A DNA stretch of 64,000 nucleotides from Abditibacterium sp. (GTDB lineage Bacteria > Armatimonadota > Abditibacteriia > Abditibacteriales > Abditibacteriaceae). The stretch covers positions 416,001 through 480,000 of the forward strand of contig OZ251992.1 of the NCBI GenBank assembly GCA_965246885.1, in the 5' to 3' direction. The first letter of the stretch is position 1. Every line of letters starts with the position of its first letter. Made by a program: the position numbers and the translations under genes. Below the pieces are notes generated by a model. The model had not been told where the DNA came from. It made no database searches and saw nothing but the letters and a program-made list of their open reading frames with translations. Shown here piece by piece: positions 44,136 through 58,010 of the stretch.

Positions 44136-44248
44136 CTCAATAGTTCGCACAACTCTGTTTTTCTATCACTAAGAATATCCAAAGGTTTTCTTAATGGCAA
44201 CCCTCATGCATTTGGGTTGGCGCCTCGTTGTGTGCGGGGCGAACTGAA

Positions 44249-44782
44249 ATGCAAACCAAACACCTCTTTTTGCGCGATGCGCGCGTATTGGCTTTGACTG
44301 TCATCTGTGTGGCAACGGGCGGGGCGCTGGCTTTGGCCGTGCCCGCAATGGCCCAACCCGCCGCTTCCGCGCCGCGCGCCGAAGTGAAGGCCGAACTCAA
44401 AGCGTTCAAGGTCGCAGGCGACAAGCTCGTGGCCGCCGACAGCGCCAATCCCGGCGACGTCATCGAATATCAAGCCCGCTACACCAATGTGGGCGGCGCC
44501 CCGGCACAACGCTTTTCGCCGCAACTGCCTGTGCCCACTGCCTTAGTCTACGCGGGCAACTCGGCACTTCCGTCCGGCTTCTTGGCCACCACCGACGGCA
44601 AGAACTTCGCCCCGGCTCCGCTTATGCGCGCTGTGCGCAAGGCTGATGGCACCACTCAACTGGTCGCCGTCCCGCTCCGCGCGTACCGCGCCCTGCGCTG
44701 GCAACTGGGCACCCTTGCACCCGGCCAATCGGTCACCGTCCGCGCCCGCGCTCGCGTTAAATCCTTCGCCGACGGCAAGTAA
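44249..44782 (+). CDS. Secreted DUF11-like (conserved repeat domain) protein
   Basis: Signal peptide; PGDVIEY..YTN; WQLGTLAPGQS. Confidence 0.8.
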   Translation: MQTKHLFLRDARVLALTVICVATGGALALAVPAMAQPAASAPRAEVKAELKAFKVAGDKLVAADSANPGDVIEYQARYTNVGGAPAQRFSPQLPVPTALVYAGNSALPSGFLATTDGKNFAPAPLMRAVRKADGTTQLVAVPLRAYRALRWQLGTLAPGQSVTVRARARVKSFADGK

Positions 44783-44971
44783 GCAAAACGGCTTCCTGAA
44801 AGCCCCGCTCAGGCAAAGGCAACAACGCGCCAATACGTGACTTCGACAGTCACCAGCGTCGCGTTGCCCCCGCGAACGGGCTTCTAAAGCCACCCTGACT
44901 ACGTTTTGATCGCTTCGCCATTGGTTTGCCGCACTGCCACTGCGAGCGTCTTCAAATTTTTCAAAAATCCC

Positions 44972-47608
44972 ATGCAGACTCAAACACGCCGCCCCATTTT
45001 ACGCGGCTTCTTGATCCCGCTTGCGCTGTGCGCGAGTGGGTTGCTGGCGCCGTCGGCTCACGCTCAGTCGACCGCGCCAGTTGCTGGCACTACCATTGGC
45101 AACAAAGCGTCGGCCACCTATACCGACAACGCCAATGTGTCGCGCTCCACGCTGTCGAACACCGTTTCGACAACTGTCACCCAAGTGCCCGCCGTTAACC
45201 TGACCGCTCCCCGCAACATTCGCGGCTATCCCAGCGCTCCGGTCAACTTCTCGCACACCGTCACCAACACCGGCAACGGCCCCGACTCCTTCAACCTCAC
45301 GGCAGTGTATGGCACCGGCACCAACGTGTCGCCGCTTTCCATCTACGCGGACGCTAACGGCGACGGCATCGCCGACAACAACACGCCCATCACGGTTTCC
45401 CCGACGTTGCAACCGGGCCAGTCCTACTCCTTCGTCGTCACGGGCACCATCCCCGGCAGCGCCACTGCTGGCTCGACGGGCACCATCACCGTTGGCACCT
45501 CGTCCGTCACCAACTCCGGCGTTACCGGCTCCAACACCGACACGGTGACGGTCTCGACCAACGCCAACATCGTCTTGCGCAAGTCGGTTTCGCTTTCTTC
45601 CGGCGCGCCCAGCGATACCACGCAATACACCTACACCCTGTCGTATGTGAACAACTCGCAAAAGACGGCTGGCTCGACGGTCATCACCGACACCATCCCG
45701 ACGGGCCTCAAGTACGTTCCCGGTTCGGGCGTTTGGCAGGGCAACGCCTTGACGGACATCTCGACCGATACCGACGCCACCATCACCAACTCGGACGCCA
45801 CCACGTCCACGATCAAGTTCTCCGAAACCGGACAAAACGTGAGCGCCACCATCAGCAGCGTTCCGCCGGGTCAGGGCGTCATCACGTTCAAGTTTACGGC
45901 CCCCGCCGTCACCGCTCCGGGCGTGTACAACAACACGGCGAACATCTCGTATGACGACGGCAGCGGCTCGCCCACAGCCGTTACGGATGTCTCGAACACC
46001 GTTCCCTTTACCGTCTCTTCGAGCGTGGCCTTCACCTTCACCGGGCCGCCCGCCATCCCCAGCGCGCCCCAAGGCAGCACCGTCTCGTTCAACAACACGT
46101 TGACCAACAACGGCACCGGCACGGACACCTTCAACATCACCCTCGTTCCGCCCGGCACCGGCGCGTTCCCCGCAGGCACCACGTTCCAACTGTATAAGTC
46201 CGACGGCGTCACGCCCTTGCTCGACACCAACGGCGACGGCATCCCCGACACCGGCCCCGTTGCCAGCAAAGGCACCTACGTCGTCGTGTTGAAGGCGCTC
46301 TTGCCTTCGGGCGCTACGGGCGGCCCCTTCGAGATGGACAAAGTCGCCACTTCGATCACCGACAAGTCCACGCAAACCGCGCAGGACAAACTGACGGTCA
46401 TCAAAGCCTCTTCGGTGGACTTGACCAACTTGGACAACACCAGCGCCGTCATCCCGGCCACCAGTGGGCCTTTCGTCGCTGGCAGTGGCGCGACCATCAG
46501 CTTGTCCGGCAACCCCGGCTCCACGCAAATCTACCCGTTGCGCGTCATCAACAATGGCCCTGCGGGAACCACCGACTCCTTCGCGCTGAGCGTTTCCACG
46601 CTCGCCCCCGGCGCCACCGGCTTCCCCGGCGCCTTGCCCGCAGGCTACACCGTCGTTTACCGCGACAAGACCACCGGCCAAGTCCTCTCCTCCGTTGACA
46701 ACTTGGCGGGCGGCGGCGGCACCCGCGACGTTCTCGCTTATGTGACCATCCCCACCACTGCGGTTGGCGGCACTTCGGTTGACCTCTACTTCAAGTCGGC
46801 CTCGCCCACGAGCGGCACCAACGACACCGTCTTCGACCGCGCCACCGTTAATGTTATCCGCAGCATCTCGGTCAAAGACAACAACTCCGGCCAAGTCGCT
46901 CCCGGCGGCTCCGTCACCTACTTGCACACCATCACCAACACCGGCGATGTTCCCGAAACCATCATCAGCGTGACCAAAGCGGGCGACGCCAACGGCTTCT
47001 CGTCGGCCCTCTATCCCGACACCAACGGCAACGGCGTCCTCGACCCGGCAGAGCAAGCCACCCCGCTCACCACAGTTGGCCCGCTCGCTCCCGGTCAATC
47101 GGTCGGCGTGTTCGTGAAAGTCTTCGGCCCCGTTTCGGCCACGCAGGTCGGCGGCGTCAACACCACCACGCTCACCGGCACGCTGTCGGCCAACTCGACC
47201 GACACCACCTACACGGCAGGCACCATCAACGGTAGCTCGACCGACTCCACCACGCTCGTCTTTGGCGACGTGAAACTGGACAAGCAGCAATCGCTCACCG
47301 GCGTCGCTGGCTCGTTCGTTCGCTCGAACCTCGCTGTTGGCCCCGGCGGAACGATCTACTACCAGATCACCGTCACCAACACCGGCACCGCGCCCGTGAC
47401 CAGCGTTGTCGTCAACGACGCCACCCCCGCTTACACGACGGCTTTGGCCGCGCCCGCCCCGTCCTACACCGACAAAACCGGCGCAGCAGTCACCACCGGC
47501 ATCACCGCGCCCGCCGCTAACGCCGCCGGTTCCTACACCTTTCCGGTCGGCACCCTCGCGCCAGGCGCGTCCTCGACCATCGTCTTCGCCGTGAAAGTCC
47601 AAGGCTAA
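44972..47608 (+). CDS. Large secreted Thr/Ser/Gly-rich DUF11/Ig-like repeat surface protein
   Basis: Signal peptide; repeated TNTGN..D, DxNGDG Ca-loop-like motifs, PGG.I.Y.ITVTN. Confidence 0.85.
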   Translation: MQTQTRRPILRGFLIPLALCASGLLAPSAHAQSTAPVAGTTIGNKASATYTDNANVSRSTLSNTVSTTVTQVPAVNLTAPRNIRGYPSAPVNFSHTVTNTGNGPDSFNLTAVYGTGTNVSPLSIYADANGDGIADNNTPITVSPTLQPGQSYSFVVTGTIPGSATAGSTGTITVGTSSVTNSGVTGSNTDTVTVSTNANIVLRKSVSLSSGAPSDTTQYTYTLSYVNNSQKTAGSTVITDTIPTGLKYVPGSGVWQGNALTDISTDTDATITNSDATTSTIKFSETGQNVSATISSVPPGQGVITFKFTAPAVTAPGVYNNTANISYDDGSGSPTAVTDVSNTVPFTVSSSVAFTFTGPPAIPSAPQGSTVSFNNTLTNNGTGTDTFNITLVPPGTGAFPAGTTFQLYKSDGVTPLLDTNGDGIPDTGPVASKGTYVVVLKALLPSGATGGPFEMDKVATSITDKSTQTAQDKLTVIKASSVDLTNLDNTSAVIPATSGPFVAGSGATISLSGNPGSTQIYPLRVINNGPAGTTDSFALSVSTLAPGATGFPGALPAGYTVVYRDKTTGQVLSSVDNLAGGGGTRDVLAYVTIPTTAVGGTSVDLYFKSASPTSGTNDTVFDRATVNVIRSISVKDNNSGQVAPGGSVTYLHTITNTGDVPETIISVTKAGDANGFSSALYPDTNGNGVLDPAEQATPLTTVGPLAPGQSVGVFVKVFGPVSATQVGGVNTTTLTGTLSANSTDTTYTAGTINGSSTDSTTLVFGDVKLDKQQSLTGVAGSFVRSNLAVGPGGTIYYQITVTNTGTAPVTSVVVNDATPAYTTALAAPAPSYTDKTGAAVTTGITAPAANAAGSYTFPVGTLAPGASSTIVFAVKVQG

Positions 47609-47638
47609 GACCAACCGGGCGCCCAGCGCGCTCAAACC

Positions 47639-47670
47639 AAAACCCCCGGCTCGAAAGAGCCGGGGGTTTT
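47639..47670. terminator. Bidirectional intrinsic terminator
   Basis: aaaacccccggctc-gaaa-gagccgggggtttt between convergent genes. Confidence 0.92.
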
Positions 47671-47688
47671 GTTCGTTTTGGGCAGCCT

Positions 47689-49272
47689 TTAAAACTGCTC
47701 GCGCGCTTCCACGCCCAGCACGCGCAATGCCGCCGTCGCGACGTTGCCCGCCGCGCGCAGCAATTCGAGCCGCCGCGTTGTGGGCGCGAGCGAGGGCGCG
47801 TTGTGGCGCGACAATTCGCGCGCCGCCCGCGCCAATTGGCCCACGAAGTCGGCGACTTTGTGCGGCGCGCGCTCCGATGCGGCGCTCTCCAGACAGTCTG
47901 GCCACAGCGCGACCAAGCGCGCCAGTTCCCGCTCGCCCGTGCTCCACTCGCCGCTTTCTGACGCGGCGGGCGCGCGGCCTTCGAGGGCGCGGCGCATCGT
48001 CGCCAAGCGCGACGGGAGCAATTGTGCGGCGTAAGCGGGGTTCGATTCGTCGTCGCGGGCGGCGATTTCCAAGTCCACAACGGCAGTCTTGCTCGCGGGC
48101 TTGGCGCAAAAGAACCAGCGCAGCGTGTCGGCGCCGACCTCTTCGATTTCCTCGTCCAACACGAGCGGTCCGCCGCCCAAGCCCAGCCGAATCGGGGCGC
48201 CGTCGCGCTCCAAAGCGGCGTCTTCGACGGTGACGAACTCGACCTTGCCCTCGTCCAACCCCGCCGCGCGCAATGCCGCTTTGGTGCGGGCGATGTAGGG
48301 CTTGTGGCCCGCGCTCCACACGTTGAGGATGGCGTCAAAGCCGCGCTCGAACTTCCAAGCGTGATAGGCGACATCGCCCGCGAAGTAGGTGGCGCGGCCC
48401 GTCGCGCGCCGGAGCACGCGGTCGGCGTCGTCGCCAAACTCGGTCGTGCGGAGCCACAACGCCCCGTCGCGCTCGTAGGTGGTGCCGCGCGCGGCGAGCA
48501 TTTCCAAGGCGCGGTCAAGGTGCCCGTCGCGCGCGAGATCGGACTCGCGCACCCACGAATCGAAGCGCGTCCCGAAGCGTTCTAAGGAGGACTTTTGCAG
48601 TTCAACGGCGCGCTCCAAGGCGAACTGCGTGGCGGCTTCCAGCCGTTCTTCGACGGGAACAGCGAGCCACTTCGCGCCGTCGCGCCGCGCCCATTCGCCG
48701 CCGAGGGTGCGCGCAAAAGCGCCCGGAGCGGGCGCGTTTTGGCCAAAAGCGTTCTGATAGGCGCCCCAAACTTCCTCGCCTAAGGCGCGCAGTTTGGGGC
48801 TACTGGTTTGGTCGTTGAGGTAGAACTCGCGCGAAACGCGCGCCCCGGCGCCTTCGAGCAAGCGGCACAAAGATTCGCCCCACGCCGCGTGCCGTCCGGC
48901 GCCCAAAGGAAGCGGGCCGGTCGGGTCGCTGGACACGTATTCGACCAAAATGCGTTGCCCCGCGAGCGCGTTCGAGGCGCCGTAGTGCGCGCCCTCGCGC
49001 GTGGCGCGTTCGAGTTCGGAGAGAAAGTGTTCGTCGCTCATGTGAAATTGCAGCCTGCCAGCCTCGAAAACAACGCGGCCCGCCCAATGGGGGCCGAGCC
49101 GTTGGATGGCAGTTTGCCCGATTTCGTCAGAGGAACGCCCGGTCGTTTGAGCGCTATGGAGAGGGAAATTGGAAGAGAACTCCCCCCACCGTGCGTCGGG
49201 GGCGACGGAAACAACGGCATCGGGCGCGTCCAAGACGCGGGCGAACAGGGCGCGCAGGCGGGAGCGGGTCAT
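47689..49272 (-). CDS. argS: Arginyl-tRNA synthetase homologue with degenerate catalytic motifs
   Basis: Full ArgRS architecture (EYVS.DPTGPL, REFYLND, GDDADRVL, YFAGDVAYH, DALR-type C-terminus) but HIGH reads PLGA. Confidence 0.75.
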   Translation of the reverse strand: MTRSRLRALFARVLDAPDAVVSVAPDARWGEFSSNFPLHSAQTTGRSSDEIGQTAIQRLGPHWAGRVVFEAGRLQFHMSDEHFLSELERATREGAHYGASNALAGQRILVEYVSSDPTGPLPLGAGRHAAWGESLCRLLEGAGARVSREFYLNDQTSSPKLRALGEEVWGAYQNAFGQNAPAPGAFARTLGGEWARRDGAKWLAVPVEERLEAATQFALERAVELQKSSLERFGTRFDSWVRESDLARDGHLDRALEMLAARGTTYERDGALWLRTTEFGDDADRVLRRATGRATYFAGDVAYHAWKFERGFDAILNVWSAGHKPYIARTKAALRAAGLDEGKVEFVTVEDAALERDGAPIRLGLGGGPLVLDEEIEEVGADTLRWFFCAKPASKTAVVDLEIAARDDESNPAYAAQLLPSRLATMRRALEGRAPAASESGEWSTGERELARLVALWPDCLESAASERAPHKVADFVGQLARAARELSRHNAPSLAPTTRRLELLRAAGNVATAALRVLGVEAREQF

Positions 49273-49280
49273 GAGAGACA

Positions 49281-49383
49281 GCGAATAAATTCGCAGCCAG
49301 CGAGGTCGTCGGCCTTCGCCGACGGCGTTTCAGTTACTACGTCGGCGAAGGCCGACGACCTCGCTGGCTGCGAATTTATTCGC
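49281..49383. repeat. Y-shaped palindromic element family A, copy 5
   Basis: Same IRs with a compensatory change in both arms. Confidence 0.9.
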
Positions 49384-50731: not shown

Positions 50732-52024
50732 TTAACCGATGCGTTCGACCCCGCCCAGATACGGCCTGAGCGCGTCGGGAATCGAAACGCTCCCGTCCGC
50801 GTTCTGGTAGTTCTCCAGAATTGCCGCGAAAGTGCGGCCAACGGCCAAGCCGCTCCCGTTGAGCGTGTGCACGAACTCCGGCTTGCCCGGCTTGCCGTTC
50901 TCGTCGAGCGGGCGGAAGCGGATGTTGGAGCGGCGGGCTTGGAAGGACTCGAAGTTGGAGCAGGAACTAATCTCGCGGTAGGTGTTCTGCGACGGGAACC
51001 ACACTTCCGGGTCGTAGGACTTGGTCGCTTTGAAGCCCAAGTCGCCCGTCGCGTGTTCCATCGTGCGGAAAGGAAGACCGAGCTTTTCGAGGATGGACTC
51101 GGCGTGCGCGCGCAGTTGTTCGAGGGCTTCGTAGGAGTTGTCGGGCGCCACGAACCAGACCAACTCCACTTTGTCGAACTGGTGGACGCGAATCATGCCG
51201 CGCGTGTCGCGTCCGGCGCTGCCCGCTTCGGAGCGGAAGCAAGGCGAATAAGCGGCGTAGCGGACGGGCAATTGCGCGGCGTCGAACACTTCATCGCGGT
51301 GGAAGTCGGTGACGGGCACTTCGGCGGTCGGGATGAGCCACAAGTCTTCCCCGTTGATTTTGTAAGCGTCCTCGGCGAACTTGGGCAAAATCCCGGCGCC
51401 CTCCATCGCGCTCGAACGCACCAACACCGGCGGCAACAACTCCTCGTAGCCGTTCTCGCCGGTCTGCACATCGAGCATGAACGAAATTAGCGCCCTTTCC
51501 AAGCGGGCGCCCATGCCGCGCAGCACGTAAAAGCGCGCGCCGGAGGTTTTCGTGGCGCGCTCGAAGTCCACGATGCCGAGTTTTTCTCCCAGTTCGTAGT
51601 GCGGCAACGGCTCGAAATCGAACGCGCGCGGCGTTCCAAAACGGCGCACTTCGACGTTCTGTTCCTCGCCCTCGCCGACCGGGGCGGAGGGGTGATGGAT
51701 GTTGGGAATCCCCAGTAGCGCGGTTTGCAACTGCTCATCTAACTCGCGGGAGTTGCCCTCCAAGGCGCCGATTTGCTCGCCGACTTCGCGGCCCTCCTTA
51801 ACTAAGTCGTCGGCAGGCTCACCTGCTTTCTTGGCGCGCCCAACTTGGGCAGCGATCTCGTTGCGCCGCCGCTTGAGTTCCTCAATTTCGGCAGTCGCCC
51901 GCCTACGCGACTCATCGAGAGACATAAATCCGTCCACCAGCGCATCCGCGCCCTTGATGTTTTTATTGCGCAAGTGCGCCTTGACCAAATCCGGGTTGGC
52001 GCGCAGAAATCGAAGTTCCAGCAT
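50732..52024 (-). CDS. serS: Serine--tRNA ligase
   Basis: [40 protein letters not shown]. Confidence 0.97.
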
Positions 52025-54306: not shown

Positions 54307-54627
54307 TTATCTGCCCCGAACAAACGTCGGGATGGCCAACACCAGCACAATGGCGGACGGGTCGAGCAGCCAAACCCACAGCGCGTGAATGCGAAGCGGC
54401 GCGAAAACGAGGCAACCGAGCAGGAGCGGCACGCCAAACGAAGCGCCCATAGAACTCCATTTGCCCGAACCCTTGCGGGCTTCAAGGGAATTAAAGCGAA
54501 GAATAAGCCAATTCATCGTCGCCAAGAACGCGCCAAAAAGCCACAACGGACACGCGACAATGAATCCTGCCGCCTCGCGCGTCGTGCAACCCAGCAGGTG
54601 GGCGAGGGCGTGCGTGAGGGCGGTCAC
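54307..54627 (-). CDS. Small membrane protein
   Basis: GTG overlaps the upstream stop; three hydrophobic segments. Confidence 0.6.
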   Translation of the reverse strand: MTALTHALAHLLGCTTREAAGFIVACPLWLFGAFLATMNWLILRFNSLEARKGSGKWSSMGASFGVPLLLGCLVFAPLRIHALWVWLLDPSAIVLVLAIPTFVRGR

Positions 54628-55136
54628 TCCGCTTTCTCCGCTTTTTCTTCCTGCGCGCGCAACACCGACGCGATGAGGCGTTCCATCGTGGCGCGCATTT
54701 CGGGGTCTTCGATTTGTCCGGCGAGTTCGCGGCCCCGGCGCGCGGCGGCGTCGTTGGTGGGGACGTGCAGAGCGACTTCGCGCTTGTTCGGCTGAGCGGG
54801 AAAAGTGGGGTCTTCCCAGTTGTCCTCGACGCTGGCTTTGCGCTTGCCGGGGGGGAGCGTGACGCGCACGCGTAGCTTCTGCACGATGGGCTTGCGCAAG
54901 CGCCCGTTGAGGCGCGCGATGATGCGGCCTTCGAGAAAGTGAACCTCGTGCGACCACTGCGGACTGCGCGCGCGGATGTAGAGAATTCCGCCCGTGAAGC
55001 GTTCGGCGAGCGTGTTGGCGGCCACCAAAGGCCCCGCGACTTCCTTCCACAATTCCACCGCCATTTGTTCCAATACCTTGCCGCGCCAGCCGCGCTCGTC
55101 CAAGACGCTGTTGACAATATTGCTCACGTTGTCCAT
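54624..55136 (-). CDS. DUF721/DciA family protein
   Basis: W.EVAG..VAANT, SPQWSHEV; canonical position after recF. Confidence 0.85.
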   Translation of the reverse strand: MDNVSNIVNSVLDERGWRGKVLEQMAVELWKEVAGPLVAANTLAERFTGGILYIRARSPQWSHEVHFLEGRIIARLNGRLRKPIVQKLRVRVTLPPGKRKASVEDNWEDPTFPAQPNKREVALHVPTNDAAARRGRELAGQIEDPEMRATMERLIASVLRAQEEKAEKAE

Positions 55137-55160
55137 TGAATCACCTCGGTTTCACTCGAT

Positions 55161-55192
55161 TTATCCACAGGTGGGCATAAAGCTATGGAAAA
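55161..55192. promoter_or_regulatory. DnaA boxes between recF and DUF721 gene
   Basis: Perfect TTATCCACA at 55161-55169; degenerate reverse box tatggaaaa at 55184-55192. Confidence 0.7.
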
Positions 55193-55194
55193 CT

Positions 55195-56337
55195 CTACTC
55201 CACCTTCCCGCCCTCCACTCGAAAGTGCGCGGCGACTTCCGCTAAGAATGTCGCATCGGTCGCGGTTACGATGCTCTGCGAAAACGACTTCGCTTCGCCT
55301 AACAATAACCCTCTGCGCGTCGCGTCCAACTCCGATAACGCATCATCTAACAGCAGTATCGGATCATCTCCTAAGGTATCCCGCACCCAATGCGCAAGCG
55401 CGATTTTAAGCGACAAAACCGCCAACCGCCCCTGCCCTTGCGAGCCGTAGCGCCGTAAATCCACGCCGCCCAGTTTGAAGGAGAACTCGTCGCGGTGCGG
55501 CCCGCTTTGTGTGGAAGCGCGGCGAAAGTCGTCGCGGTGGTCGTCCTCCAGAGAACTCAAAAATAAGCGCGAGAACTCTTCCTCGCTCCCGCGCCGCCAA
55601 GCCGACAGTCCCGGCGCATATTCGATTTCAAACGGCCCGTCCAACCCTGATAAGCGCGCGTGCGTTTCGGCGAGGAGAGGGGCGACTTCGACAAAGAACT
55701 GGTTGCGCGCCGCCAACACCCGCGCGCCGTAGCTCACCAAAGCGCGGTTGAGTTCGCCCAACGAGCCGTATTTCTCCTCGGTTTCGCGGCTTTTGGGGTT
55801 GTCGAGCGACGCCTTGATGTAGGCGTTGCGCTGCTGCAAAGCGCGCCGATAGCGGGCGATGTCCGAGAAGTAGGCGGGCCAGATTTTGCCCAGTTCGAGG
55901 TTCAAAAAGCGCCGCCGCTCTTCGGGTTCGCCCGACACGAGCGCCAAGTCGTGCGGGAAAAACGACACCACCTGCAACTGCCCCAGCCACCCCGCCACCG
56001 CCGACTGCGGCACGCCGCCCACCTTCATTTCGCGCTCGACCTTTTGCCCCTCGACGCGCCAACTGTATTCCAAGCGCCGCACATCCGCCGCCCGGTTCGG
56101 CGGCGGCGGCAACTCCACTTCCGCGCCCAACCGCGCCGCGCGCTCGTTCCACCGGATCAATTCCCGGTCGCGCTCCACGAGCGGCGATTTCGTCGTCGCC
56201 AACACGCACACCGCCTCCAACAAGTTCGTCTTCCCCTGCCCGTTATCCCCCGTAAACGCCACCAACCCGGCGGGCAACTGTAGCTCCTGCGCGGCGTAGT
56301 TGCGGAAATTGGCGAGGCGGAGGGAGCGGACGACCAT
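55195..56337 (-). CDS. recF: DNA replication/repair protein RecF
   Basis: NFRNY, GDNGQGKTNLLEA, GPHRD, GSQGQ, LLLDDALSELD. Confidence 0.96.
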   Translation of the reverse strand: MVVRSLRLANFRNYAAQELQLPAGLVAFTGDNGQGKTNLLEAVCVLATTKSPLVERDRELIRWNERAARLGAEVELPPPPNRAADVRRLEYSWRVEGQKVEREMKVGGVPQSAVAGWLGQLQVVSFFPHDLALVSGEPEERRRFLNLELGKIWPAYFSDIARYRRALQQRNAYIKASLDNPKSRETEEKYGSLGELNRALVSYGARVLAARNQFFVEVAPLLAETHARLSGLDGPFEIEYAPGLSAWRRGSEEEFSRLFLSSLEDDHRDDFRRASTQSGPHRDEFSFKLGGVDLRRYGSQGQGRLAVLSLKIALAHWVRDTLGDDPILLLDDALSELDATRRGLLLGEAKSFSQSIVTATDATFLAEVAAHFRVEGGKVE

Positions 56338-56377
56338 GTGAGGGAACGCGGAAAAAGAACGAACAGCGAAGTGGTGC

Positions 56378-56740
56378 TTAACGATGCGTCTTCGCTTTGT
56401 TGATGGACGCAACAACGATGGCGACCAACTCGTTGGCTTCGGCGCGCAGGTCAAAAGCAGTTTCAGGCTGAATCAGACCGCGCTTTTCGAGAAGGTCAAG
56501 CCAGAACTCCGACTCGTCCGCCTCTTCCACCGTGCCCATTTTGGAAATAAAATCGGCGTTCGATTTAGCGCGTTTCGCGGCTCGCGTATTGGCACCAACA
56601 GACGTGGCACAACGAAGCAACTGTTTCCCCAACACATCCGCCGTCCGGGTGCGTGGCAACTGCTCGACAACCTCAATGATATCCAACGCAAACAATTTAG
56701 TGCGGTCTCGCAAGTCAAAGGGCTTCTCTTCGCGGTTCAT
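56378..56740 (-). CDS. Four helix bundle protein (23S rRNA IVP family)
   Basis: L.DRTK.FAL, QLLR.ATSVGAN, S.ADFISK, EADES.FWL, EANELVAI. Confidence 0.9.
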   Translation of the reverse strand: MNREEKPFDLRDRTKLFALDIIEVVEQLPRTRTADVLGKQLLRCATSVGANTRAAKRAKSNADFISKMGTVEEADESEFWLDLLEKRGLIQPETAFDLRAEANELVAIVVASINKAKTHR

Positions 56741-56782
56741 AATTTCCTTTTCCGCGTTCCGGTTTCTGACTTCCGCGTTGGG

Positions 56783-57877
56783 CTACGCTTGCATCGGCAT
56801 GACGATGTAAATGAACCCCTCGCCCGCTCGCAGGATGCCGGGGTTGAGGGCGCCGTTGAGTTCGAGGGTCAGTTGGTCGTCGGGGATGAGGCCCAACACT
56901 TCCATGAGGTATTTGGCGTTGAAGGCGATTTGCAATTCGGAGCCGTCCATCGCAATCGGGATTTCCTCGTAGGTTTGGCCCGCTTCGTTCGATTCGGCGT
57001 TCATCGAAAGCGTGGCGTTGTTGAACTTGCACACCATTTTCTGGTTGGCCGAGCGCGACACGATGTCCACGCGGCGAACGGCTCCCAGCCATTCTTCACG
57101 CTCGAAGGAGACTTTGCGCTCGGTCGCTTTGGGGATGACTTTCTCGTAATTGGGGAATTGGCCGTCCAACACGCGCGAAACGAGCGTCGCCGACTCCGAC
57201 GAGAACTGCACCTGACTCGAACCGAAGCGGATCGTGACCATGTCCTCGGCGCCGCGCCCCAACACGCGCTCCAATTCGATGAGCGGCTTGGCCGGAACGA
57301 TGGCCGAAACGGGAGTCGCAACAGCTTCGCTGAGAAGTGTTTGCTTCCACGCCAAGCGGTGCGTATCGGTCGCCACAAGCGTCAAGGTGTCGCCGCGCGC
57401 CTCGAACAGGACGCCCATCAGAATCGAGCGCGACTCTTCTTTGCTGGCCGCGAACGCGGTCATGCGAATCATTTCCTTGAGCGTCGCGGCGGACAGCGTT
57501 ATCTCGGTGCCCTGCGTCACTTCCGGCACGACCGGGAAATCTTCGGCGGGCGCGCTCATAATCGTGAACCGCGAATGACCAGAGCGCACCACGACCTTCC
57601 CATCGCCGCCTTCAAGCGTCACGGGGGCATCGGGCAGCTTGGAAACGTAGTCGCTCAGGACGGAAGCGGGCAGCGCGACCTCGCCGTTCTCGGACACCGT
57701 CGCGGGAAGGGCGCACCGGACGAAAGTATCGAGGTCGGTGGCCGACAGCTTGATGCGGTCGTCGGCGGTCTGGAGCAAGACGTGCGTCAAAATCGGCAGG
57801 GTATTGCGCGACGACACGGCGCGACCGGCGACGCCGAGGGCTTGGGCGAGATACGAGCGTTCACAGGTAACTTTCAT
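56783..57877 (-). CDS. dnaN: DNA polymerase III beta sliding clamp
   Basis: LPIL, ATDLD, ATDTHRL, GQFPNY, FNAKYL, VMPM. Confidence 0.97.
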   Translation of the reverse strand: MKVTCERSYLAQALGVAGRAVSSRNTLPILTHVLLQTADDRIKLSATDLDTFVRCALPATVSENGEVALPASVLSDYVSKLPDAPVTLEGGDGKVVVRSGHSRFTIMSAPAEDFPVVPEVTQGTEITLSAATLKEMIRMTAFAASKEESRSILMGVLFEARGDTLTLVATDTHRLAWKQTLLSEAVATPVSAIVPAKPLIELERVLGRGAEDMVTIRFGSSQVQFSSESATLVSRVLDGQFPNYEKVIPKATERKVSFEREEWLGAVRRVDIVSRSANQKMVCKFNNATLSMNAESNEAGQTYEEIPIAMDGSELQIAFNAKYLMEVLGLIPDDQLTLELNGALNPGILRAGEGFIYIVMPMQA

Positions 57878-57914
57878 GGCGACGATATGGGTAGATTTTA
57901 CCCCGATGGAAAAG

Positions 57915-58010
57915 TCGGGGGATAACTCAGGTATAACTCGGCCCAATTGGGTAAAACCGGGTCAAATTAGGGATAACTCTGGGGATAAGCGGTAATTGTA
58001 GGGATAAGTC
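57915..58010. promoter_or_regulatory. DnaA-box cluster upstream of dnaN
   Basis: Several tagggataa/tggggataa boxes (for example 57968, 57980, 57999), all in one orientation. Confidence 0.75.

Follow-up and report, generated by a model that had tools for sequence, protein, structure and literature searches.

A displaced native arginyl-tRNA synthetase retained in the Abditibacteriaceae: a candidate non-charging, arginine-binding pseudo-synthetase

A housekeeping synthetase that has been displaced is normally expected to be lost, and a locus where such a gene is instead retained family-wide under selection raises the question of what its product does. The gene concerned, P0001, lies in a window of 64,000 nucleotides (the whole stretch of DNA that was analysed) from Abditibacterium sp. 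A sequence-only reading had described it as an arginyl-tRNA synthetase (ArgRS) homologue with eroded catalytic motifs, possibly a repurposed paralogue. The odd ArgRS copy is real and conserved, and not an artefact, and its retention points to a second job for the protein. The gene and the parts of its product that matter here are listed below in window coordinates.

47689..49272, minus strand: native-type argS, probable pseudo-synthetase P0001; open reading frame of 527 aa with all ArgRS domains
48982..49272, minus strand: Add1 (D-loop/A20-reading) domain, residues 1-97; the GF(I/L)N motif is GRLQF in P0001
48892..48942, minus strand: class I signature strand and loop, residues 111-127 (sequence comparison)
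48793..48795, minus strand: Lys160, in place of Gln (sequence comparison)
48352..48387, minus strand: guanidinium-binding helix with Tyr296, Asp300 and Lys307 kept (from homologues; roles from the available part of PMC3956977)
48295..48315, minus strand: W-G-A/P-D-H loop; His323 and Tyr326 kept, Gly320 and Asp322 relaxed
48169..48192, minus strand: KMSKS-equivalent loop, Lys-Arg pair gone (row comparison)
48007..48057, minus strand: omega-loop/anticodon helix, residues 406-422, rewritten (sequence comparison)

Both the Add1-catalytic-Add2 architecture and the ArgRS fold are found in P0001, judging from its domains and its structural model. Profile searches gave weak matches to PF00750 and PF05746 and none to PF03485, and the score against TIGR00456 (231.5 bits) misses the equivalog cut-off of 261.65, the second ArgRS copy of the same genome reaching 489.5. 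The AlphaFold2 model, computed from an 82-sequence alignment, has a mean pLDDT of 94.0; Foldseek ranks ArgRS structures first with this model, the best being Campylobacter jejuni 3fnr (TM 0.77 by query length and 0.90 by target length), and an ESM Atlas search returned ArgRS clusters only. Relatives of P0001 in public records carry a plain arginine-tRNA ligase annotation, and the source names of the homologues place the organism within the Abditibacteriota/Abditibacteriaceae.

The second canonical argS for which a search had been proposed does exist. A PF00750 profile search of the genome hits two places, namely the P0001 gene (22.4 bits) and C1:814441-816204 (326.1 bits), and the latter encodes a protein whose HVGH motif is intact and whose length is covered by an alignment to ArgRS 4oby of E. 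coli (E 8e-136). The two copies are 26% identical over 396 columns. Both argS types occur in all 24 Abditibacteriaceae relatives, hence in 25/25 genomes with the source genome included, and the odd copies, present in every one of the 25 with identity down to 43%, lack internal stops in 24 cases; the copy is broken near its C-terminus in G023 (79% complete) and split across contig ends in G018.

Which of the two copies is the newcomer can be read from their relatives and their surroundings, the upstream features being the following.

49281..49383, no strand assigned: 44-bp perfect inverted repeat, REP-like, 8 bases upstream of the argS start codon
49391..50704, minus strand: CBS + DUF1385 gene, ancestral upstream neighbour of native argS
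50732..52024, minus strand: serS, intact (TIGR00414, 529.7 bits, above cut-off)

The outside relatives of the second copy (best 80 of 592 stretches) are mostly from Verrucomicrobiota, at 46-58% identity, which suggests that the working argS was imported, its nearest relatives outside Abditibacteriota being Verrucomicrobiota among the matches listed. The orthologues of the odd copy in other families are, by contrast, the sole and intact ArgRS. As judged from coordinates, the CBS-DUF1385 gene stands directly upstream of the native gene in 17/29 single-copy, 10/12 Abditibacteriaceae and 8/13 other degenerate genomes, counts in which several misses may be contig breaks. Trees and synteny thus support the odd copy as the ancestral gene, still at its original position, and the working copy as the newcomer, which reverses the earlier view of P0001 as a paralogue. 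Two arrangements elsewhere are worth recording. At G053:C39 and G130:C53, argS is directly preceded by a DUF1385-like gene, and since the G053 argS is of the imported type, a replacement in place is suggested there; at L120 (G098:C149) and L122 (G074:C150), a degenerate native copy sits just upstream of the imported one and shares its contig and strand. Seven genomes in which argS is of an imported type only yielded no native copy (G044, G053, G078, G112, G113, G202 and G208, the call for G078 resting on one match), so this copy is dispensable in some lineages and the second job is not universal.

The residue comparison covered 25 Abditibacteriaceae copies, 36 single-copy rows and, from families f8, f15 and f30, 14 degenerate copies; "single-copy" here means that a second argS type was not detected in that genome, although incomplete assemblies could hide one. 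The G037 copy, of another ArgRS type, was left out of the family and phylum counts, and the mis-framed G180 fragment was left out of the residue and site comparisons, being included among the 36 KMSK-loop rows. The frame of P0001 is open over its full 527 aa, and the motif changes described from the sequence are all present in its translation: residues 114-127 read SSDPTGPLPLGAGR, with SAGH at 320-323, IRLGLGGG at 361-368, YAAQLLPSR at 414-422 and Phe527 as last residue. The identical PLPLGAGR stretch occurs in 5/25 Abditibacteriaceae genomes, and the PLGA spelling, whose conservation across relatives had been put forward for checking, does not extend beyond those five. The first HIGH histidine is present in 0/25 and the second in 1/25 of the family's copies, at least one being missing in all 25; taken together, these counts mean that the motif changes are not sequencing noise.

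Not every change weighs the same. Both HIGH histidines are indeed absent from P0001, which has Pro122 and Ala125 at these positions, but the value of this loss as a sign of erosion is limited, because 17/35 single-copy ArgRS of the phylum also lack both (the first is present in 11/35, the second in 13/35); the loss is hence not diagnostic of inactivity in this phylum. Four of these 17 also lack Asn/Gln at the second position, and a few database homologues of P0001 retain a HIGH histidine (5/118 and 12/118). Sole ArgRS without both histidines, for example L075 (G031), L072 (G036), L169 (G121) and L159 (G149), are presumably active and offer a test of that motif's importance. The loss of the terminal Met stands for P0001 itself, but it is weaker evidence, as is the change at site 160 (Gln in 36/36 single-copy native enzymes, Lys/Arg in 25/25 Abditibacteriaceae copies), because the working copy varies at both equivalents: it ends in Ile in G000, and only 5 of 24 rows (L033-L059) have the Gln of its GDWGTQFG motif, with Ala in 12 others, Pro in 6 and Gly in 1.

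As far as sequence comparison goes, three changes are diagnostic: Asn116 to Asp/Glu, the loss of the KMSKS-type Lys-Arg pair and the rewriting of the anticodon helix. Site 116, equivalent to E. coli N123, is Asn in 35/35 single-copy enzymes and Asp/Glu in 25/25 Abditibacteriaceae copies (Asp in P0001), with D in 106, E in 12 and N in none of 118 database homologues; among 150 library representatives, 14 have Asp/Glu at this site and none of these retains the KMSK pair together with the QYAH motif. The KMSK-type basic pair is found in 34/36 single-copy rows, 1/25 Abditibacteriaceae copies and 0/14 other degenerate rows. Also invariant in single-copy enzymes and altered in the Abditibacteriaceae are G320, Y415, Y418, H420, H485 and M527, with Y415A, Y418L, H420P and M527F fixed. 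We take the Y-x-Q-Y-A-H-x-R helix sites and the terminal Met of ArgRS to serve anticodon reading. New residues have been fixed over P0001 406-422, namely an acidic R406-D-D-E409 patch and A-x-x-L-x-P in place of Y-x-Q-Y-A-H; E409 and L418 occur in all 119 homologues spanning those sites, L418 and P420 being newly fixed.

Such a gene could be a relic in slow decay, and selection bears directly on this. Nei-Gojobori dN/dS values of the odd copy in close within-clade pairs range from 0.08 to 0.22, with similar values for the working copy; the pooled value over seven disjoint pairs is 0.159, and the 95% interval for G000-G003 is 0.11-0.19. Medians over the 95 of 300 pairs with dS < 1.5 are 0.36 for the odd and 0.29 for the working copy, saturation and GC bias being expected to push such estimates upward. 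By part, dN/dS is 0.24 in Add1, 0.13 in the catalytic domain, 0.10 in the KMSK region and 0.17 in Add2, so that the rewritten KMSK loop and Add2 are themselves constrained. In the tree, the Abditibacteriaceae odd copies have a long stem (1.03 changes per column) and shorter crown branches, a pattern that would be expected from a change of function followed by constraint. Decay could draw on a dN ratio of about 1.46 relative to the working copy, on the broken G023 copy and on the shortening of some native copies in other families to 390-480 aa. The presence of the copy in 25/25 genomes at identities down to 43%, under purifying selection (~0.16), nonetheless indicates that it is not decaying; new residues have been fixed, and neither the neutral evolution nor the frame disruption of a pseudogene was found. 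Decay is thus very improbable and, for the Abditibacteriaceae, already largely refuted; a dN/dS test across relatives is what the sequence-only reading had proposed. Together with the second argS, this selection makes repurposing, as first proposed, the best reading.

What has been kept may indicate the nature of the second job. In the alignment with E. coli ArgRS, P0001 E111 corresponds to D118, D116 to N123, A125 to H132, Y296 to Y313, D300 to D317, K307 to R324 and H323 to Q341. According to the available part of PMC3956977, D118, Y313 and D317 of the E. coli enzyme bind the arginine guanidinium, D118A and D317A abolish arginine binding by ITC, and N123, H132 and Q341 touch the arginine main chain. 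All members of the guanidinium-binding set (D/E118, Y313, D317, R/K324) have their counterparts in P0001, and Glu111 and Arg127 of the class I signature are retained; of the main-chain contacts (N123, H132, Q/H341), P0001 keeps H323 alone, D116 and A125 being altered. Across 120 database homologues, E111 is conserved in 118/118, E243, Y296, D300, H323 and Y326 in 120/120, and Lys or Arg at 307 in 120/120. With the published roles, these equivalents describe an intact side-chain pocket from which two of three main-chain side-chain contacts are gone, and the loss of N123 and H132 may weaken the binding of free arginine.

We tentatively favour, at somewhat less than even confidence, a non-charging arginine- or arginyl-binding pseudo-synthetase, probably a sensor. 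As trees and synteny support, an intact E. coli-type argS appears to have been imported and to have taken over tRNA charging from the family's ancestral ArgRS; sequence comparison shows that the old copy then lost residues of the ATP site and of anticodon reading, while its fold and its pocket for the arginine side chain stayed and new residues became fixed. Its charging activity has most likely gone, and its ligand is most likely arginine or a carboxyl-blocked arginyl group, as in Arg-tRNA; as a HisZ-like regulatory subunit, it would relay the state of this ligand to a putative partner. A purely tRNA-binding role, another of the early proposals, is disfavoured, since preservation is poorest in the tRNA-identity domains and best in the arginine pocket. 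ArgR (PF01316) was found in 0/71 phylum genomes by a search that detected it in 9/14 controls, and argG is present in G000, which leaves an arginine-sensing job open; the absence of ArgR does not single out the carriers, because genomes with an intact native enzyme lack it too. A family comparison found no conserved arginine-pathway neighbour near the locus, and the buried polar pocket residues could have been retained for folding alone. Agmatine was considered as a ligand and is not supported, PF04371 being without a match and speA without an above-cut-off match in G000 (92.7% complete).

A two-copy survey of a phylum sample of 201 genomes, with a follow-up of 30, shows that the Abditibacteriaceae are not alone. 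Degenerate native copies occur in f8 (6), f15 (6) and f30 (2), each beside an imported argS, and the imported copies form several separate clades in the tree. The single-copy enzymes share 117 conserved sites. Of the 58 that fall in the catalytic domain, each of the four lineages retains 29-38, against 0-3 of 12 in Add1 (3/12 in the Abditibacteriaceae), 5-9 of 41 in Add2 and 1-2 of 6 in the KMSK region. All four have sixteen retained sites in common, among them E111, R127, N153, D154, E243, W273, R289, Y296, D300 and K307, and likewise 22 lost ones, among them N116, K365, Y415, Y418, H420 and M527. At site 116, the 14 other degenerate copies have Asp in 8, Gln in 1 and Asn in 5, and the Asn to Asp change recurs in G025 and G027. 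Other two-copy genomes carry a native copy that looks intact (G169, G193) or is partly eroded (G029, G057, G115, G156).

Degeneration apparently occurred about four times independently, as the CBS-DUF1385 protein tree supports: each degenerate lineage is there sister to a group with intact single-copy enzymes (SH-aLRT 97 for f8 with f36, 96 for f30 with f25, 96 for f15 with f31), and the Abditibacteriaceae fall inside their own class, with f3 (SH-aLRT 90). Native-copy trees instead group the degenerate rows together (support 95), as a shared origin would, although this grouping is probably caused by long-branch attraction; one of these trees left out three fragments and 13 Abditibacteriaceae rows. 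An AU test does not reject class monophyly of the native copies (p 0.056), a result that does not demonstrate it, and a shared origin retains some plausibility against the intact sister groups of the CBS-DUF1385 tree.

P0001 might still be a synthetase, either slow, conditional or of altered specificity, serving as a backup or on another tRNA. The domains and fold are all retained, 17/35 single-copy enzymes do without both HIGH histidines, and the working copy varies as well (Gln at the Q160 equivalent in 5/24 rows, Ile end in G000). The accessible text of PMC3956977 moreover has the canonical KMSK missing in many ArgRS, and that of PMC5919687 has N153 of yeast ArgRS touching the adenylate via its backbone. 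Against this stand the 22 single-copy-conserved sites lost across the four lineages, and the four tRNA-Arg genes of the genome look normal, no special substrate tRNA being found by ARAGORN in the genome; residual charging activity appears unlikely. Three calls that at first sight might mark a special tRNA, two of Stop(TTA) and one of SeC, are copies of a palindromic repeat present at 31 places, and the calls made in intron mode were noise. The false tRNA-SeC/tRNA-Stop calls from this repeat family lie at G000:C1:351206, 1435707 and 3354297.

The main rival is an ATP-independent enzyme acting on Arg-tRNA, either a deacylase (removing arginine or canavanine from a wrong tRNA) or an arginyl transferase, which might work as cyclodipeptide synthases or SbzA do, the new Asp116 then adjoining the ester bond. 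E243, W273 and R289 are retained in all four degenerate lineages, and their equivalents presumably sit at the tRNA CCA end, as in the yeast ArgRS complex. The main-chain contacts equivalent to N123 and H132 are lost while side-chain contacts stay. Carboxyl-side contact loss, an acid at 116 and retained CCA-end residues would together fit an arginyl ester; relaxed anticodon and A20 sites would likewise suit an enzyme indifferent to tRNA identity, and Asn to Asp is seen again in 8/14 copies of f8, f15 and f30, as well as in G025 and G027. Yet Asn is retained in 5/14 of these copies, Asn to Asp needs a single transition and is often tolerated before Pro, Glu replaces Asp in 12/118 homologues, which is unusual for a catalytic base, and no acceptor or biosynthetic gene is conserved near the locus in the family comparison. 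Such an enzyme is possible, if doubtful. It is also doubtful, a little more so, that displaced native ArgRS have repeatedly and independently become ATP-independent arginyl-tRNA enzymes (proofreading deacylases or arginyl transferases) via the same Asn to Asp change, with Gln to Lys/Arg in two lineages; if true, a hidden second ArgRS activity would be exposed, separable from charging only once an imported copy charges.

The neighbourhood of P0001 suggests another possibility, that of a structural partner of the CBS-DUF1385 protein, SerRS or another translation factor, the pocket being a matter of fold only. Adjacency to the CBS-DUF1385 gene is phylum-wide, the newly fixed R406-D-D-E409 patch is of surface type, and an ArgRS:SerRS partnership is described for an archaeon in the available part of PMC7373986. 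The adjacency is, however, broken in 2/12 Abditibacteriaceae and 5/13 other degenerate genomes, the CBS-DUF1385 gene persists where no native copy was detected (G044, G053, G078, G113, G202), and serS is not near the gene in G004, G009 and G011; a purely structural role is therefore improbable. As initially described, serS and the CBS-DUF1385 gene both lie upstream on the same strand. The CBS-DUF1385 linkage comes from the intact ancestor (17/29 single-copy genomes) and is broken in some carriers, and serS was seen near native argS only in the Abditibacteriaceae, the three genus members just named being exceptions.

The CBS-DUF1385 protein, encoded in 65/71 phylum genomes, has an invariant H-x-x-E-H and H-x-R-C set and is possibly a nucleotide-regulated, metal-dependent membrane enzyme. 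Homologues of dnaN, recF and dciA (54624-57946) lie upstream of serS in most Abditibacteriaceae loci, and in the window a 120-aa ORF (56378-56740) separates dnaN from recF. On the other side, a 900-aa DUF11-repeat protein and its 184-aa upstream partner (44228-47608) are encoded convergently on the P0001 gene, with the following feature in between.

47638..47671, no strand assigned: terminator-like hairpin between the P0001 gene and the convergent DUF11-repeat gene (pattern match only)

The upstream hairpin at 49281..49383 is ruled out as a dedicated argS regulator, being a REP-like repeat found at 56 genome places.

Whatever the activity, the same core kept in about four lineages amounts to a natural experiment in which charging is set apart from a non-charging role of ArgRS. 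Non-charging synthetase copies are already known (HisZ, LeuRS-I, LeuRS2, SLIMP), and P0001 is not filed as an active ArgRS. A full-text literature search, with most subscription papers outside its coverage, returned no title or abstract opening describing such an ArgRS copy, and in the available part of a 2022 review of duplicated synthetases (PMC9437257), "ArgRS" is absent and arginyl occurs only in a reference.

The closest relative is the bacterial ArgRS of the SANPTG subtype (3fnr and the single-copy Armatimonadota argS), of which P0001 is a direct orthologue, sharing its fold, domain order, genomic position and arginine side-chain pocket. It differs in the N123 equivalent, the KMSK Lys-Arg pair, the Y-x-Q-Y-A-H motif and the terminal Met, and a second, intact argS always accompanies it in the genomes examined. 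NrtL (NF045898) is an ArgRS-derived anticodon-binding family to which NCBI gives a name distinct from that of the ligase. P0001 scores 52 bits against it, below the cut-off of 340, and is thus not NrtL; the NrtL model (327 positions) covers the N- and C-terminal parts of ArgRS and skips most of the catalytic domain, so that NrtL appears to retain the opposite domains to P0001.

Cyclodipeptide synthases and SbzA, which are of class I descent and whose donor is aminoacyl-tRNA (available part of PMC9437257), could serve as a model for the Arg-tRNA enzyme; the likeness would be functional and not sequence-based, P0001 having all ArgRS domains and no biosynthetic cluster. LeuRS-I of Sulfolobaceae, LeuRS2 of Halobacteria and SLIMP are full-length copies with little or no aminoacylation, retained like P0001 beside a working synthetase (available parts of PMC9437257 and PMC4005665). 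As far as these sources extend, they keep tRNA binding and LeuRS-I adenylates, whereas in P0001 the pocket stays and erosion affects the ATP and tRNA-identity sites. For the arginine-binding pseudo-synthetase that we favour, the functional model would be HisZ, a HisRS paralogue and regulatory subunit of HisG that senses its cognate amino acid and does not adenylate (available part of PMC9437257). The analogy lies in an amino-acid pocket kept while the ATP and tRNA-identity sites are eroded; HisZ is of class II with a known partner, and P0001 is a full-length class I protein from a displaced native gene.
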